Below the pieces are notes generated by a model that saw only the letters and a list, made by a program, of their open reading frames with translations, was not told the origin of the DNA and did no database searches. Shown piece after piece: positions 1-4,809 of a DNA stretch of 4,809 bases (positions are counted from its first letter, which is position 1; each line of letters begins with the position of its first letter). Source of the DNA: a virus. Lineage: Duplodnaviria; Heunggongvirae; Uroviricota; Caudoviricetes. The stretch lies in the IMG/VR virus record IMGVR_UViG_2534682256_000019. One strand, given 5' to 3'. The position numbers were made by a program, and so were the translations under genes.

Positions 1-126
1 GGGGAAAAACGAGTATTTTTAGTCATCCTGTTTACCTCTTTCTCAGGGAGTTTAGTCTCCAGGATTTCCGGGGCGGTTCAGTATGGCGAGAACACAGGTT
101 ATCTGGCTGAAAGAGGGGGTTATTAA
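1..126 (+). CDS. Possible 3' end of an upstream CDS (partial, product unknown)
   Basis: Frame 1 is open from position 1 to a TAA at 124-126, ending 3 nt before the rusA GTG; tight packing is typical of lambdoid nin-region operons. Frame 3 is also open to a TGA at 106-108, so the frame is not certain. No start is visible in the window. Confidence 0.25.
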   Translation, partial: GEKRVFLVILFTSFSGSLVSRISGAVQYGENTGYLAERGGY

Positions 127-129
127 GGC

Positions 130-492
130 GTGAATACCTACAGCATCACATTACCCTGGCCTCCGAGCAATAATCGCTACTACCGGCATAATCGCGGGCG
201 CACGCACATCAGCGCAGAAGGGCAGGCATACCGTGATAACGTCGCCCGAATCATCAAAGGCTCCATGCTGGATATCGGCCTGGCTATGCCAGTGAAAATC
301 CGTATTGAGTGCCACATGCCGGATCGCCGTCGCCGTGACCTGGATAATCTGCAAAAAGCCGCTTTTGACGCACTCACCAAAGCAGGTTTCTGGCTGGATG
401 ATGCTCAGGTCGTTGATTACCGTGTTGTGAAGATGCCCGTTACCAAAGGTGGGAAGCTGGAGCTGACCATCACCGAACTGGGGAATGAATGA
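130..492 (+). CDS. rusA: RusA crossover junction endodeoxyribonuclease (Holliday junction resolvase)
   Basis: 120-aa ORF; the sequence [26 protein letters not shown]...DDAQVVDY matches my memory of E. coli prophage RusA almost residue for residue. GTG start at 130 preceded by GAGGGGG (113-119); a TAA lies in frame immediately upstream, so no longer form is possible. Confidence 0.93.
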
Positions 493-629
493 TGTTTGAG
501 TCTTATATGGCAGAACGTCTTCGCCACCGCTGGATGCGCCTGCGCTTATATCGTTTTCCTGGTTCTGTTTTGACCGATTACCGGATACTGAAGAATTACG
601 CCAAAACACTGAAAGGAGCTGCCGCATGA
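492..629 (+). CDS. ylcG: Small basic protein, YlcG-like (45 aa), translationally coupled between rusA and Q
   Basis: ATG at 492-494 shares A492 with the rusA TGA stop (490-492); its TGA stop (627-629) overlaps the Q ATG (626-628). Translation: [45 protein letters not shown]. Position and size agree with the small ylcG ORF that I recall between rusA and the Q gene in E. coli DLP12. Not in the supplied ORF track because it is under 60 aa. Confidence 0.5.
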   Translation: MFESYMAERLRHRWMRLRLYRFPGSVLTDYRILKNYAKTLKGAAA

Positions 630-1315
630 ATACCCAATATTTACAGTATGTCCGCGAGCAACTCATTGTGGCTACCGCTGATTTGAGCGGAGCAACGAAA
701 GGACAGCTTGAAGCCTGGCTGGAGCATGCACAATTTGATACTGGTACATACAAACGAAAGAAGCCGCGCATTCTGGATGAGGTAACTGGCAGGATGATTA
801 CGCTGGATAATCCGCCGATTTCCGGTAAGCAGTCGTACGCAAAAGGTTCATCCATTGCACTGGTCAGCCAGGTTGAGTTCTCAACCTCGTCATGGCGCCG
901 CGCGGTTCTGTCTCTCGAAGAACATCAGAAAGCGTGGTTGCTGTGGAGTTACAGCGAAAGTGTTCGCTGGGAACATCAGGTCACCATAACGCAGTGGGCA
1001 TGGAGCGAGTTTAAGACTCTGTTGGGTACCAGGAAAATTGCAGGTAAGACACTGGAACGTTTGAAGAAGTTGATCTGGCTGGCGGCACAGGATGTGAAGA
1101 ACGAGCTGGCAGGGCGTAAGACCTATGAATACCAGGAGCTGGCATCACTGGTGGGAGTGACATCAAAAAACTGGTCTGAGACATTTACTGAACGCTGGGT
1201 TGCAATGAAACACATTTTTCTACAGCTTGATAGCCAAGCTTTATTGCTTTTAACGAAAACACGTTCAAAACAAAAGACCACATTTTCACAGCAAGATATT
1301 GCAAAACTGGATTAA
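626..1315 (+). CDS. Putative late-gene antitermination protein Q (non-lambda type; no Cys zinc-finger)
   Basis: 229-aa ORF with a strong SD (AGGAG 614-618, 7 nt before ATG 626). It sits where lambdoid genomes carry Q: just downstream of the nin/rusA genes and just upstream of a promoter-plus-terminator region and the lysis cassette. The call is positional; the protein has no cysteines, so it is not lambda-Q type. Confidence 0.6.
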   Translation: MNTQYLQYVREQLIVATADLSGATKGQLEAWLEHAQFDTGTYKRKKPRILDEVTGRMITLDNPPISGKQSYAKGSSIALVSQVEFSTSSWRRAVLSLEEHQKAWLLWSYSESVRWEHQVTITQWAWSEFKTLLGTRKIAGKTLERLKKLIWLAAQDVKNELAGRKTYEYQELASLVGVTSKNWSETFTERWVAMKHIFLQLDSQALLLLTKTRSKQKTTFSQQDIAKLD

Positions 1316-1327
1316 AAATCATATATT
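1299..1327 (+). promoter_or_regulatory. Candidate sigma70 late promoter (pR'-like) overlapping the 3' end of Q
   Basis: TTGCAA (1299-1304), 17-bp spacer, TATATT (1322-1327); predicted start near 1334-1335. Downstream -10-like elements (TGTAAAT, GATATT) could act as a sigma-dependent pause or Q-loading site. Sequence pattern only. Confidence 0.3.
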
Positions 1328-1382
1328 TTATGTAAATCTGATATTTTGCCAATGTTGTACGCACTGGCAGTAATCCAAATTC

Positions 1383-1417
1383 AAGCCCGAGGTTTAAAGC
1401 CTTGGGCTTTTCTGTTT
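1383..1417 (+). terminator. Intrinsic terminator (tR'-like) about 80 nt downstream of the candidate late promoter
   Basis: Stem AAGCCCGAGG (1383-1392) pairs with CCTTGGGCTT (1400-1409), 10 bp with one G-U, loop TTTAAAG; followed by the T-rich run TTTTCTGTTTCT. Confidence 0.6.
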
Positions 1418-1496
1418 CTGAACGGTGAGTAGCCTTCCAACCTACCCCAGCCAGGGGGTCTTCAGCTGTTGAGTTGATATTGCTTAGCCCTCTGTT

Positions 1497-1522
1497 GCCA
1501 GCTACATGCTGGCTTTTTTATT
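1497..1522 (+). terminator. Second intrinsic terminator upstream of the holin gene
   Basis: GCCAGC (1497-1502), loop TACAT, GCTGGC (1508-1513), followed directly by TTTTTTATT (1514-1522). Confidence 0.6.
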
Positions 1523-1624
1523 CCAGGCTTGTGGGGAGCATCAACTCCGTGCTTTGTCGTTAAATTACCCCGTGAGCCTGATTTCTGACATTTAACGTCC
1601 CGGCCTTTTGTCGGCGGCGAAACA

Positions 1625-1942
1625 TTGGCTATTCATATGCACGAAAAAGAGAGCCTTGCCGGAGCGTTCTGGCTCGTTTTGCTGATCATCGCAGGTTGGG
1701 GCGGTCTGGTCCGCTACCTGATAGATGTGAAGCAGAGTAAAGCAACGTGGAGTTGGATAAATGCTCTGGCTCAAATAGTGGTATCAGGATTCACCGGTGT
1801 TATTGGTGGCCTGATCAGCATCGAAAGTGGATTCAGTATTTACATGATTCTCGCGACAGCGGGGATTAGTGGTGCGATGGGTTCGGTTGCACTGACGTAC
1901 TTCTGGGAACGACTGACAGGGGTGAAAAATGCAAAATCTTAA
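1625..1942 (+). CDS. Holin (class I-like, three predicted transmembrane segments); possible dual start TTG 1625 / ATG 1637
   Basis: 105-aa ORF directly upstream of and overlapping the endolysin gene by 14 nt. Three hydrophobic stretches (AGAFWLVLLIIAGWGGLV, WINALAQIVVSGFTGVIGGLI, FSIYMILATAGISGAMGSVALTYF) and a charged C-terminus. The ORF-track start at 1625 is TTG; the first ATG is at 1637 (MHEKESLAG...). Confidence 0.8.
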   Translation: MAIHMHEKESLAGAFWLVLLIIAGWGGLVRYLIDVKQSKATWSWINALAQIVVSGFTGVIGGLISIESGFSIYMILATAGISGAMGSVALTYFWERLTGVKNAKS

Positions 1943-2405
1943 TCCTCAGCGTAAAGCCTTCCTCGATATGTTGGCGTGGTCAGAAGGAACGGATAACGGG
2001 CGACAACCGACACGTAACCACGGTTATGATGTTATTGTTGGCGGCGAACTGTTTACTGATTACTCCGATCACCCTCGCAAACTTGTCACGCTACACCCCA
2101 AACTCAAATCAACAGCCGCCGGACGTTATCAGCTTCTTTCACGCTGGTGGGATGCTTACCGTAAACAGCTTGGTTTGAAAGACTTCTCCCCCAAAAGCCA
2201 GGACGCAGTGGCATTGCAGCAGATTAAAGAGCGTGGTGCTTTACCTATGATTGATCGCGGTGATATCCGTCAGGCAATCGACCGTTGCAGTAATATCTGG
2301 GCTTCACTGCCGGGCGCTGGTTATGGTCAGTTCGAGCATAAGGCTGACAGCCTGATTGCAAAATTCAAAGAAGCTGGCGGAACGGTCAGAGAGAGTGAGG
2401 TATGA
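1929..2405 (+). CDS. R: Endolysin, lambda R-type lytic transglycosylase
   Basis: 158 aa; from residue 7 onward ([20 protein letters not shown]...) it matches my memory of phage lambda R closely, including the catalytic Glu in the AWSEGTD motif. Its stop overlaps the Rz start (ATGA at 2402-2405). Confidence 0.93.
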
Positions 2406-2863
2406 GCAGAATAACCGCGATTATCTCCGCTCTGCTCATCTGCATCATCGTCTGCCTGTCATGGGCTGTTAATCATTACCGTGATAACGCCATTACCTAC
2501 AAAGCCCAGCGCGACAAAAATGCCAGAGAACTGAAGCTGGCGAACGTGGCAATTACTGACATGCAGATGCGTCAGCGTGATGTTGCTGCGCTCGATGCAA
2601 AATACACGAAGGAGTTAGCTGATGCGAAAGCTGAAAATGATGCTCTGCATGATGATGTTGCCGCTGGTCGTCGTCGGTTGCACATCAAAGCAGTCTGTCA
2701 GTCAGTGCGTGAAGCCACCACCGCCTCCGGCGTGGATAATGCAGCCTCCCCCCGACTGGCAGACACCGCTGAACGGGATTATTTCACCCTCAGAGAGAGG
2801 CTGATCACTATGCAAAAACAACTGGAAGGAACCCAGAAGTATATTAATGAGCAGTGCAGATAG
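2402..2863 (+). CDS. Rz: Rz spanin, inner-membrane subunit (i-spanin)
   Basis: 153 aa with an N-terminal TM segment ([20 protein letters not shown]) and a coiled-coil-like periplasmic region; near-identical to lambda Rz as I recall it. Confidence 0.93.
2622..2804 (+). CDS. Rz1: Rz1 spanin, outer-membrane lipoprotein subunit (o-spanin), embedded in the +1 frame of Rz
   Basis: 60-aa ORF wholly inside Rz in another frame, with its own SD (GGAG 2611-2614, 7 nt before ATG 2622), a lipobox LVVVGC (Cys20) and a proline-rich mature region ([15 protein letters not shown]). This is the classic lambda Rz1 architecture. Confidence 0.9.
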
Positions 2864-2888
2864 AGCTGCCCATATCGATGGGCAGCTC
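2863..2888. terminator. Perfect 11-bp hairpin between convergent Rz and bor (possible bidirectional terminator)
   Basis: GAGCTGCCCAT (2863-2873), loop ATCG, ATGGGCAGCTC (2878-2888); it begins at the last base of the Rz stop codon and ends 7 nt before the bor stop codon. No strong U-tract on either side. Confidence 0.4.
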
Positions 2889-2894
2889 ATGCAA

Positions 2895-3188
2895 TTATTG
2901 TGAGCAATACACACGCGCTTCCAGCGGAGTATAAATGCCTAAAGTAATAAAACCGAGCAATCCATTTACGAATGTTTGCTGGGTTTCTGTTTTAACAACA
3001 TTTTCTGCGCCGCCACAAATTTTAGCTGCATCGACAGTTTTCTTCTGCCCAATTCCAGAGACGAAGAAATGGTGGGTGATGGTTTCCTTTGGTGTTACTG
3101 CTGCCGGTTTGTTTTGAACAGTAAACGTCTGTTGGGCACATCCTGTAATAAGCAGGGCCAGCGCAGTAGCGAGTAGCATTTTTTTCAT
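2895..3188 (-). CDS. bor: Bor outer-membrane lipoprotein (serum-resistance lipoprotein, lysogenic conversion)
   Basis: 97 aa with a signal peptide and lipobox (MKKMLLATALALLITGCAQ); it matches my recollection of lambda Bor and sits convergent to Rz, as in lambda. Confidence 0.92.
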   Translation of the reverse strand: MKKMLLATALALLITGCAQQTFTVQNKPAAVTPKETITHHFFVSGIGQKKTVDAAKICGGAENVVKTETQQTFVNGLLGFITLGIYTPLEARVYCSQ

Positions 3189-3321
3189 GGTGTTATTCCC
3201 GATGCTTTTTAAAGTTCGCAGAATCGTATGTGTAGAAAATTAAACAAACCCTAAACAATGAGTTGAAATCTCATATTGTTAATATTTATTAATGTATGTC
3301 AGATGCGAAGGATCGTCACTG

Positions 3322-3387
3322 TATTCCCGGATTAACTATGTCCGCAGCCCTGACAGGGAAACTCCTCTGCGGGAGTGTCCGGGAATA
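3322..3387. repeat. Nested inverted-repeat element in the bor to ybcV-like intergenic region
   Basis: Perfect 10-bp outer inverted repeat TATTCCCGGA (3322-3331) / TCCGGGAATA (3378-3387); inside it CCGCAG (3342-3347) / CTGCGG (3367-3372), and a central palindrome CCCTGACAGGG (3348-3358). Confidence 0.5.
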
Positions 3388-3479
3388 ATTAATAACGATG
3401 CACACAGGGTTTAGCGCGTACACGTATTGCATTATGCCAACGCCCCGGTGCTGACACGGAAGAAACCGGACGTGATGAT

Positions 3480-3890
3480 TTAGCGTGGAAAGATTTGTGT
3501 AGTGTTCTGAATGCTCTCAGTAAATAGTAATGAATTATCAAAGGCATAGTAATATCTTTTATGTTCGTGGATATTTGTAACCCATCGGAAAACTCCTGCT
3601 TTAGCAAGATTTTCCCTGTATTGCTGAAATGTGATTTCTCTTGATTTCAACCTATCATAGGACGTTTCTATAAGATGCGTATTTCTTGAGAATTTAACAT
3701 TCACAACCTTTTTAAGTCCTTTTATTAACACAGTGTTATCGTTTTCTAACACAATGTGAATATTATCTGTGGCTAGATAGTAAATATAATGTGAGACATT
3801 GTGACGTTTTAGTTCAGAATAAAACAATTCACAGTTTAAATCTTTTCGCACTTGATCGAATATTTCTTTAAAAATGGCAACCTGAGCCAT
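3480..3890 (-). CDS. ybcV: Hypothetical protein, YbcV-like (136 aa from the ATG; the ORF stays open to a TTG at 4013 giving 177 aa)
   Basis: Long minus-strand ORF in an AT-rich segment (hand counts give 18-19 G+C per 60 nt in rows 3661-3780, against 32 per 60 in the endolysin row 2041-2100). The ATG at 3888-3890 has an SD-like GGAAGG 8 nt upstream on the minus strand; the first in-frame ATG (3930-3932) and the TTG (4011-4013) have none. Position (next to bor) and the 136-aa size match my recollection of ybcV in DLP12 and the ORF beside bor in lambda. Function unknown. Confidence 0.7.
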
Positions 3891-4175
3891 TGGTAAAACC
3901 TTCCATGTGATACGAGGGCGCGTAGTTTGCATTATCGTTTTTATCGTTTCAATCTGGTCTGACCTCTTTGTGTTTTGTTGATGATTTATGTCAAATATTA
4001 GGAATGTTTTCAATTAATAGTATTGGTTGCGTAACAAAGTGCGGTCCTGCTGGCATTCTGGAGGGAAATACAACCGACAGATGTATGTAAGGCCAACGTG
4101 CTCAAATCTTCATACAGAAAGATTTGAAGTAATATTTTAACCGCTAGATGAAGAGCAAGCGCATGGAGCGACAAA

Positions 4176-4382
4176 ATGAATAAAGAACAATCTGCTGATG
4201 ATCCCTCCGTGGATCTGATTCGTGTAAAAAATATGCTTAATAGCACCATTTCTATGAGTTACCCTGATGTTGTAATTGCATGTATAGAACATAAGGTGTC
4301 TCTGGAAGCATTCAGGGCAATTGAGGCAGCGTTGGTGAAGCACGATAATAATATGAAGGATTATTCCCTGGTGGTTGACTGA
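4176..4382 (+). CDS. ybcW: Hypothetical small protein (68 aa), YbcW-like
   Basis: ATG at 4176 with a strong SD (GGAG 4165-4168, 7-nt spacing). Mildly acidic 68-aa product. Order and size match the small ORF after the bor-adjacent gene in lambda and DLP12 as I recall them. Confidence 0.65.
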
Positions 4383-4546
4383 TCACCATAACTGCTAATC
4401 ATTCAAACTACTTAACCTGTGACAGAGCCAACACGCAGTCTGTCACTGTCAGGAAAGTGGTAAAACTGCAACTCAATTACTGCAATGCCCTCGTAATTAA
4501 GTGAATTTACAATATCGTCCTGTTCGGAGGGAAGAACGCGGGATGT

Positions 4547-4741
4547 TCATTCTTCATCACTTTTAATTGATGTATATGCTCTCTTTTCTGACGTTAGCCT
4601 CCGACGGCAGGCTTCAATGACCCAGGCTGAGAAATTTCCGGACCCTTTTTGATCAAGAGCGATGTTAATTTGTTCAATCATTTGGTTAGGAAAGCGGATG
4701 TTGCGGGTTGTTGTTCTGCGGGTTCTGTTCTTCGTTGACAT
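4547..4741 (-). CDS. ylcI: Small putative DNA-binding protein with ribbon-helix-helix-like features (64 aa), YlcI-like
   Basis: 64-aa minus-strand ORF: basic N-terminus (MSTKNRTRRTTTR), then a candidate beta-strand NIRFP and two helix-like segments (NQMIEQINIALDQKG, NFSAWVIEACRRRL), the pattern of Arc/MetJ/CopG proteins. Size and position match my recollection of ylcI in DLP12. The SD is weak. Confidence 0.6.
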   Translation of the reverse strand: MSTKNRTRRTTTRNIRFPNQMIEQINIALDQKGSGNFSAWVIEACRRRLTSEKRAYTSIKSDEE

Positions 4742-4809
4742 GAGGTTGCCCCGTATTCAGTGTCGCTGATTTGTATTGTCTGAAGTTGTTTTTACGTTAA
4801 GTTGATGCG

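Follow-up and report, generated by a model that had tools for sequence, protein, structure and literature searches.

The bor–cos block of a lambdoid prophage as a likely slot for separately exchanged genes at a lambda-type right end

The 4,809-nucleotide stretch of caudoviricete DNA considered here (IMG/VR record IMGVR_UViG_2534682256_000019; the window, meaning the whole stretch at its full length) carries rusA, ylcG, Q, holin, endolysin, Rz/Rz1 and bor genes, i.e., the late region of a lambdoid prophage, followed by a block (positions 3190–4809) with three small genes, ybcV, ybcW and ylcI (Table 1). We consider it likely that this block is a lambda-type right end, whose accessory (moron) slot is filled by separately exchangeable one-gene modules rather than by one system. 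This reading is built on the identity of the DNA with lambda, the reality of the genes, their independent assortment, the lack of matches to defence models and the presence of a box for the host regulator PdhR, together with published data on PdhR dependence, non-essentiality and tolerated over-expression; what we say below of the roles of the three proteins is inferred.

Positions 2895–4809 align with phage lambda 46459–48370 (J02459/NC_001416) at 98.2% identity across 1914 nt. The window ends 131 bp before the right end (cos) of lambda; hence, what a first-pass annotation of the same DNA had described as a block beyond bor forms the rightmost part of lambda itself. The lambda equivalents are bor, lambdap78 (YbcV; DUF1398), lambdap79 (YbcW) and an open reading frame (ORF) corresponding to YlcI (DUF3950) that is unannotated in NC_001416 and annotated in lambda imm434, O276 and phage 434. 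This DNA is thus nearly identical to the accessory region between bor and cos, with the order Rz-bor-p78-p79-(ylcI)-cos/terminase, and the strands and spacings are those of lambda (NC_001416 46459–47944, up to cos), with protein identities of 100% for YbcW, 98.5% for YbcV and 98.4% for YlcI. The differences comprise 28 substitutions in 3190–4809, a 2-nt indel in the bor–ybcV spacer and, upstream, genes of the DLP12/O157-prophage type (RusA, YlcG and a 229-aa Q) in place of the lambda nin/Q region.

The same gene set is annotated in lambda, HK630, lambda imm434, DLP12 and O157 prophages. In Escherichia coli O157:H7 DNA that is 100% identical to the block, RefSeq names ybcV (minus), ybcW (plus) and ylcI (minus), bearing out the first-pass calls of three small ORFs, and continues with nohD, the large terminase subunit, portal and head genes. 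Likewise, the cryptic prophage DLP12 of K-12 has borD-ybcV-ybcW-ylcI-nohD, with gene set and order identical to those of the window; however, DLP12 is defective, with its packaging genes truncated past nohD, whereas the O157 relatives of the window run on into complete head genes. The right-end region of lambda has been sequenced since 1982, and bor, p78 and p79 are listed as non-essential in the paper reporting a genome-wide dCas12a screen. The block is therefore already known, as the bor–cos region of lambda and as ybcV-ybcW-ylcI of DLP12, and the earlier suggestion of an undescribed system is not supported, the DNA being lambda's own right end. Its description as accessory DNA between the lysis genes and cos, with genes that have no assigned function, is supported.

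The sharp fall in G+C past bor, which the first-pass annotation had estimated by hand, survives exact counting: the block has 39.2% against 48.9% in window positions 1–3189, and 3661–3780 has 30.8% (about 30% had been claimed), although the endolysin stands at 49.9% rather than the quoted 53%, with the lysis genes at about 50%. By gene, the values are 32.1% for ybcV, 39.6% for ybcW and 43.1% for ylcI. The strong dip is accordingly ybcV itself, and ybcW and ylcI are just mildly low. Pairwise comparisons with diverged phage homologues gave ratios of nonsynonymous to synonymous substitution rates (dN/dS) of 0.35 for ybcV (against ev099), 0.41 for ybcW and 0.17–0.49 for ylcI; across this range of 0.17–0.49, all three are under purifying selection and are real genes.

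Even in lambda, the best-studied temperate phage, the last 1.6 kb before cos still contain three conserved genes without a known role, and these are present in more than half of the complete E. coli genomes. For genome scans, the case is a caution that an AT-rich block of small ORFs beside bor is ordinary lambdoid cargo, catalogued already. If the genes are separable modules rather than a system, experiments are redirected accordingly, and the interest that remains lies in the functions of the three widespread genes alone.

Independent exchange of ybcV, ybcW and ylcI

The three genes differ widely in their distribution. A tblastn search across 50,697 phage records found YlcI in 155, YbcV in 43 and YbcW in 40, and megablast against 5426 complete E. 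coli genomes located 8369 places that resemble ylcI, with as many as 12 in one genome, compared with 3689 for ybcV and 2136 for ybcW. Among 76 IMG/VR loci with a YlcI at least 95% identical to that of the window, the cargo behind it falls into five combinations: ybcV, ybcW and bor (34 loci), bor only (26), ybcW only (10; here alongside gnsB and cspI), none of them (4), and ybcV and ybcW without bor (2). Individual phages show the same mosaic. Phage 434 reads Rz-bor-ylcI-cosQ, i.e., with bor and ylcI only; ev099 has KilA-N ... ybcV-ylcI and neither bor nor ybcW; mEp460_ev081 has cspG-gnsB-ybcW and no ybcV; and in Stx phage BP-4795 a DUF3950 gene stands alone, 41 bp from a divergent HNH-terS-terL module. 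The Qin prophage holds paralogous DUF3950 and DUF1398 genes (ynfO-ydfO) in the same position beside nohA and, like ev099, has the ylcI→ybcV arrangement without ybcW; it differs from the window in that bor is also absent, the two genes lie side by side, and gnsB, ynfN and cspI make up the cargo next to them.

Presence or absence among close relatives and deviant base composition, clear for ybcV and mild for the other two, are features that the block shares with bor and lom of lambda (Hendrix-type morons), as are the location between late-gene blocks and expression from a (cryptic) prophage, the last being documented for ybcV and ybcW in DLP12. In contrast to the three genes, bor and lom have established products and phenotypes.

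The first-pass annotation had viewed the block as one exclusion, defence or toxin–antitoxin-like cassette. In such a cassette, YlcI would be the DNA-binding regulator, and YbcV and YbcW would act as effectors that the prophage makes for the protection of its host. In favour of this view, acquired, AT-rich DNA in a known moron slot encodes a small, basic, probably DNA-binding protein beside two proteins without known function, and the three genes together with bor form the commonest single arrangement among the 76 loci. However, the genes assort independently, and most ylcI copies in the E. coli genomes occur without either partner. The obligate co-occurrence and adjacency of a type II toxin–antitoxin pair are likewise absent: 40 of the 76 ylcI loci have no ybcV, and in the block ybcW lies between the two on the other strand. 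The profile searches suggested in the first-pass annotation matched YbcV to DUF1398 and YlcI to DUF3950, and gave no Pfam domain for YbcW. Searches with the PADLOC-DB 2.0 defence models found no match for the three proteins, the best being partial stretches with E 0.07 and 0.017, and none at all for YlcI. Over-expression of YbcV or its paralogue YdfO is also tolerated and the region is non-essential in lambda; hence, we regard such a cassette as very improbable.

YbcV matches Pfam PF07166 (DUF1398) along the whole profile (1–119 of 119; E 3e-46; 156.6 bits against a cut-off of 22), the match spanning residues 49–167 in a 177-aa form of the protein. As the profile starts only at residue 49 of this long form, and both the Prokaryotic Genome Annotation Pipeline (PGAP) and the curated lambda imm434 record use the 136-aa form, the gene probably starts at the ATG at 3890 and the 177-aa form is an over-extension. 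The protein is basic (calculated isoelectric point (pI) 9.2) and without a hydrophobic segment, and all 136 of its residues align with YdfO (PDB 2HH8; E 1.6e-70), at 79% identity in tblastn. An AlphaFold2 model from a shallow alignment reached a predicted local distance difference test (pLDDT) score of 51.4; a Foldseek search with this poor model missed even 2HH8, and it supports no inference on the fold.

The E. coli literature and the paralogue argue indirectly against YbcV being a toxin: YdfO was produced for a nuclear magnetic resonance (NMR) structure (2HH8), and a ybcV over-expression clone of the ASKA collection grew to stationary phase in a glycogen screen, with altered glycogen content. 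The ybcV::Kan mutant of the Keio collection is used routinely. DUF1398 had no match to a toxin or defence model in Pfam or PADLOC, and a DUF1398 gene with 53% identity stands alone among chromosomal genes in Citrobacter murliniae.

RefSeq labels lambdap78 a 'head protein', a name inherited from that of PHROG 413. Homology to a structural function had been named beforehand as grounds for abandoning the first-pass reading, and the label would supply it; we reject it as an annotation artefact, since ybcV is antisense to the late operon and knock-down leaves plating unaffected. In the dCas12a screen, knock-down of p78 gave an efficiency of plating (EOP) of 1.9 and 1.3, and p78 was scored non-essential; by position and phenotype, it does not belong with the virion head proteins. 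An older label, 'putative envelope protein', is also unsupported because YbcV, YbcW and YlcI all lack a membrane-like segment.

Host control of ybcV and ybcW and the late transcript

The genes ybcV and ybcW diverge from a spacer of 285 bp. Genomic SELEX (systematic evolution of ligands by exponential enrichment) placed a PdhR site, AtcTGGTctgACCtcTT, in the corresponding spacer of DLP12, and in a pdhR mutant ybcV mRNA fell 10.0-fold and ybcW mRNA 8.9-fold (PMC7660256). The window carries this 17-mer letter for letter at 3952–3968, and a further TGGT-N3-ACC core lies at 3891–3900. Since the shared control region holds a PdhR site, ybcV and ybcW would be host-regulated prophage genes under the pyruvate sensor PdhR; the site and the dependence on pdhR imply that the pair has its own host-controlled expression from an otherwise silent prophage. 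Such expression is moron behaviour and supports part of the intuition behind the first-pass annotation. As for its further claim of independent promoters, a consensus scan of the block found 4 promoter-like sites against 5.6 ± 2.4 expected by chance, i.e., no excess; the published DLP12 results, obtained on an identical spacer, speak for a control region that belongs to ybcV and ybcW themselves. A 40-aa ORF (3968–4090, plus strand) begins at the end of the PdhR box; it is entered in the lambda imm434 record as a coding sequence with a ribosome-binding site. Pfam returned no match for it, and it is unlikely to be a gene.

We see ybcV, which shares its strand with ylcI and is very rich in AT, as an acquired gene, and the most likely role of YbcV and YbcW would be to modulate the physiology of the lysogen, not to kill cells.

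YbcW, for its part, is identical to lambda p79 and belongs to PHROG 657, a family labelled as of unknown function. The gene is co-directional with the Q-dependent late operon, which runs from pR' through cos into nu1...J. When p79 was targeted in the dCas12a screen, the EOP fell to 1e-4 to 3e-4 (scored 'essential'), though p79 is listed as non-essential; the guides against bor and p78 had no effect. The authors of the screen document roadblock polarity on long lambda transcripts, and we infer that the p79 effect is such polarity on the late transcript. If the p79 guide blocks that transcript, ybcW lies on the late mRNA; being in the sense direction on the 27-kb Q-antiterminated late transcript, ybcW would then be made late in lytic growth too.

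Several points weigh against a reading as separate modules. The physiological roles proposed for YbcV, YbcW and YlcI are guesses. Every Escherichia locus with ybcV has ylcI upstream on the same strand, and this constancy keeps a two-gene ylcI–ybcV reading alive at low probability. Further, of the 46 loci with at least one of ybcV and ybcW, 36 contain both, and the two genes share a control region; thus, the two may act together. Over-expression of T4 MotB was accompanied by a more than 1000-fold rise of ybcV and ybcW, measured in BL21(DE3). As this strain also carries lambda DE3, the data cannot serve as proof of silencing by H-NS, and late transcription or cross-mapping may underlie the rise instead of relief from H-NS.

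Finally, a 2026 preprint on a NADase immune domain (DUF4062/NIR) mentions lambdap79 six times, including the phrases 'co-expression of lambdap79' and 'of the lambdap79 gene'. To judge from such phrase counts in the preprint, YbcW as an immune trigger or as a counter-defence factor is only a lead.

YlcI and its relatives in phage satellites

YlcI belongs to the DUF3950 (YlcI/YnfO) family, matching PF13132 with E 5e-20 and 71.4 bits (cut-off 25) and NCBIfam NF041551 with 36.6 (cut-off 30). Out of 1.84 billion proteins, this small family accounts for 141 clusters at 50% identity. The protein is very basic (calculated pI 10.5), with an Arg/Thr-rich tail, a probable strand–helix–helix and a variable C-terminal tail. 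Its first approximately 50 residues are nearly invariant, and the C-terminal tail exists in at least three unrelated versions (window 4547–4600; L005, L008, P0100), which suggests that joints of mosaic recombination fall within the 3' end of ylcI.

The first-pass annotation had called YlcI a putative ribbon–helix–helix (RHH) protein. Residues 14–50 align in register, though weakly, with Arc (P 0.049) and NikR (P 0.032) in hhalign, and its likeness to the RHH domains of Arc, Mnt and NikR extends to the strand, helix A, the G-x-N-x-S turn and helix B (NIRFP in YlcI versus NLRWP in Arc), besides the basic character and two predicted helices. An AlphaFold2 monomer model places helices at 19–32 and 34–62, with residues 1–18 as coil (pLDDT 65.5). 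The family profile found no RHH match in the PDB. We regard YlcI as a putative RHH DNA-binding protein of the Arc type.

These features bear on the possibility of an ancestral ylcI→ybcV pair, with an RHH antitoxin or regulator of variable tail and an effector, into which ybcW was inserted later in lambda and DLP12. Besides the constant upstream position of ylcI, the two genes are about 58 bp apart in Qin and ev099 with nothing between them, and a DNA-binding N-terminal part followed by a variable tail resembles type II antitoxins. However, more than half of the ylcI copies have no ybcV, and phage 434, which lacks ybcV, keeps the lambda-type tail; the tail thus does not track the supposed partner. 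The production of YdfO, the growth of the ybcV clone, and the lone Citrobacter gene of a family without toxin or defence matches also tell against such a pair, and we deem it quite unlikely.

Distant relatives of YlcI in phage satellites offer another view of the family. In two of them (P0316 and P0376), DUF3950 is fused to the N-terminal helix–turn–helix (HTH) of Terminase_2, with both domains above the Pfam cut-offs; these fusions (120 and 129 aa) are encoded in integrase–primase satellites (DUF3950 genes at L053:7590–8363 and L052:4714–5103). The first of these satellites (L053; E. coli CP027459) is inserted in the terS of a lambdoid helper prophage, which itself carries a DUF3950 gene ahead of HNH-terS, and the HTH of the fusion is 64% identical to the N-terminus of the helper's small terminase subunit (TerS). 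The satellite DUF3950 genes diverge from the replication operon, the position where repressors sit. By eye, the palindrome GGTACGTACC occurs twice, flanking TATAAT and abutting the start codon of a 60-aa satellite gene, and direct repeats stand before the two fusion genes, with three to four copies of the GTTTAACAC type and three of GTGCA(C)AAACAC; the operator-like stretches are L053:7444–7590, L053:7775–8000 and L052:4420–4713. Their position and these repeats support DNA binding by the DUF3950 family.

An alternative would make YlcI a cos-proximal packaging accessory that modulates terminase access, e.g., by shielding the prophage cos, or that acts in packaging competition between helper and satellite. 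It draws on the constant place of ylcI directly before packaging genes of any type (Nu1/NohD at 99% or 37% identity, HNH plus Terminase_2), the listing of the DUF3950 family in capsid-forming phage-inducible chromosomal islands, and the two satellite fusions with their HTH so close to the helper TerS. On the other side, ylcI runs antisense to the late operon, from which terminase is made, the satellite genes occupy the repressor position with palindromic operator-like sites at the gene's own start, and no evidence of YlcI binding comes from the window or from the reference lambda data. Moreover, lambda DNA is packaged in vitro and from cosmids with terminase, integration host factor (IHF) and a short stretch of cos DNA in which ylcI is absent. 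We assign this alternative little probability and favour an action of the DUF3950 family on transcription. Redirection of packaging in the manner of Rpp was considered too and rejected, Rpp being a winged HTH protein and not a DUF3950 one.

Within the preferred reading of a right end with separate modules, ylcI would be the constant element: without exception it directly precedes the packaging genes and is antisense to the late operon. YlcI may regulate leftward transcription in the prophage state. Between the ylcI start and cosQ, outside the window, a site at lambda 48447–48465 (L002:4448–4466) agrees with the Fur-box consensus at 16 of 19 positions (GTAGATGATAATCATTATC) and overlaps the palindrome GATAATGATTATC. 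This site, also conserved in phages 434 and ev099, in Qin and in O157 prophages, could mediate an iron response of the leftward transcription of ylcI, and perhaps of bor, or be part of cos.

A bolder proposal is that ylcI encodes an unrecognised, widely conserved, cos-proximal RHH regulator, which satellites copied into the repressor position and into a TerS fusion, tying it to helper–satellite control over packaging or late expression, and that YbcW is a small acidic protein, made late, that either is sensed by bacterial NADase (NIR/DUF4062) immunity or normally counters host immunity. The second half leans on what the phrases of the preprint convey; we hold this proposal to be unlikely.

Spacer structures, feature coordinates and displaced lambda copies

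The intergenic DNA had been called repeat-rich, a description that a repeat search of the block did not bear out, with no direct-repeat family and two weak inverted pairs alone. An Rfam search of 3190–4809 gave no match. The sole clearly non-random structure in the spacers is the long hairpin between bor and ybcV, with a predicted RNA folding energy of −31.3 kcal/mol (z −4.5) on the plus strand and −28.1 kcal/mol (z −3.3) on the minus strand, 0 of 200 shuffled sequences being as stable. It has no U-tract and is possibly the 3' end of, or a barrier to, leftward ybcV transcripts. In many O157:H7 genomes that otherwise match the window at 100%, IS1203 is inserted within this hairpin, with the junction at 3334–3337. 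For bor, the consensus scan gave a sigma-70-like match (CTGACA-16-AACAAT) at 3302→3275, and the HK630 record annotates a minus-strand promoter at the equivalent of window 3318–3344.

Table 1. Genes and candidate control or structural elements in and beside the bor–cos block (window coordinates)
Feature	Positions	Strand	Basis and remarks
bor, serum-resistance lipoprotein, known moron of the slot	2895–3188	−	ORF, bor annotation and lambda match; left neighbour of the block
Candidate bor promoter region	3275–3344	−	Consensus and annotation
Long imperfect hairpin, 66 nt	3322–3387	both	bor–ybcV spacer, G+C-richer island
ybcV (lambdap78), 136 aa, DUF1398	3480–3890	−	RefSeq annotation, Pfam; long form (177 aa) from TTG 4013
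PdhR box ATCTGGTCTGACCTCTT	3952–3968		Divergent ybcV/ybcW control region; exact copy of the DLP12 genomic SELEX site
ybcW (lambdap79), 68 aa, acidic (pI 4.9)	4176–4382	+	ORF; 100% identical to lambda p79; PHROG 657
Weak hairpin	4407–4461	+	Convergent ybcW/ylcI spacer; −20.6 kcal/mol, z −1.9; minus strand not significant
ylcI, 64 aa, DUF3950 (YlcI/YnfO)	4547–4741	−	Equals lambda 48109–48303 (complement); last gene before cos and the terminase genes

Copies of this DNA under other names affected the database searches. The record MW057783.1 ('Campylobacter phage CJLB-4', 48,361 bp) matches the window exactly as lambda does (98.2%, same genes) and is probably lambda DNA under another name. Lambda right-end DNA with 98–99% identity is also found in assemblies labelled Pseudomonas, Kitasatospora, Brevibacillus, Arcanobacterium ('plasmid'), Flavobacterium, Dovyalis caffra (a plant) and others, on contigs of about 48.4 kb or about 3.5 kb, the latter covering approximately lambda 45.1–48.4 kb (L013–L047, e.g., L015, L017, L018 and L023). 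The shorter ones fit the 3.6-kb lambda control amplicon of Oxford Nanopore sequencing, and these contigs look like spike-in contamination. The scan of genome contigs matched mostly lambda contamination in unrelated 'genomes', and the protein databases are flooded by error-ridden copies of YbcV, YbcW and YlcI (P0001–P0120, P0122–P0240 and P0379–P0498). Three large homologue searches were dominated by near-identical sequences from the approximately 3.5-kb contigs, and yielded neither deep alignments nor informative names.

Farther upstream in the window, an Rfam match to isrJ at 1331–1410 scored 30.4 bits (E 0.009), under the gathering score of 37. It lies just downstream of Q in an AT-rich dip (1201–1400), where the late promoter of a lambdoid phage, along with a short leader RNA, would be expected.

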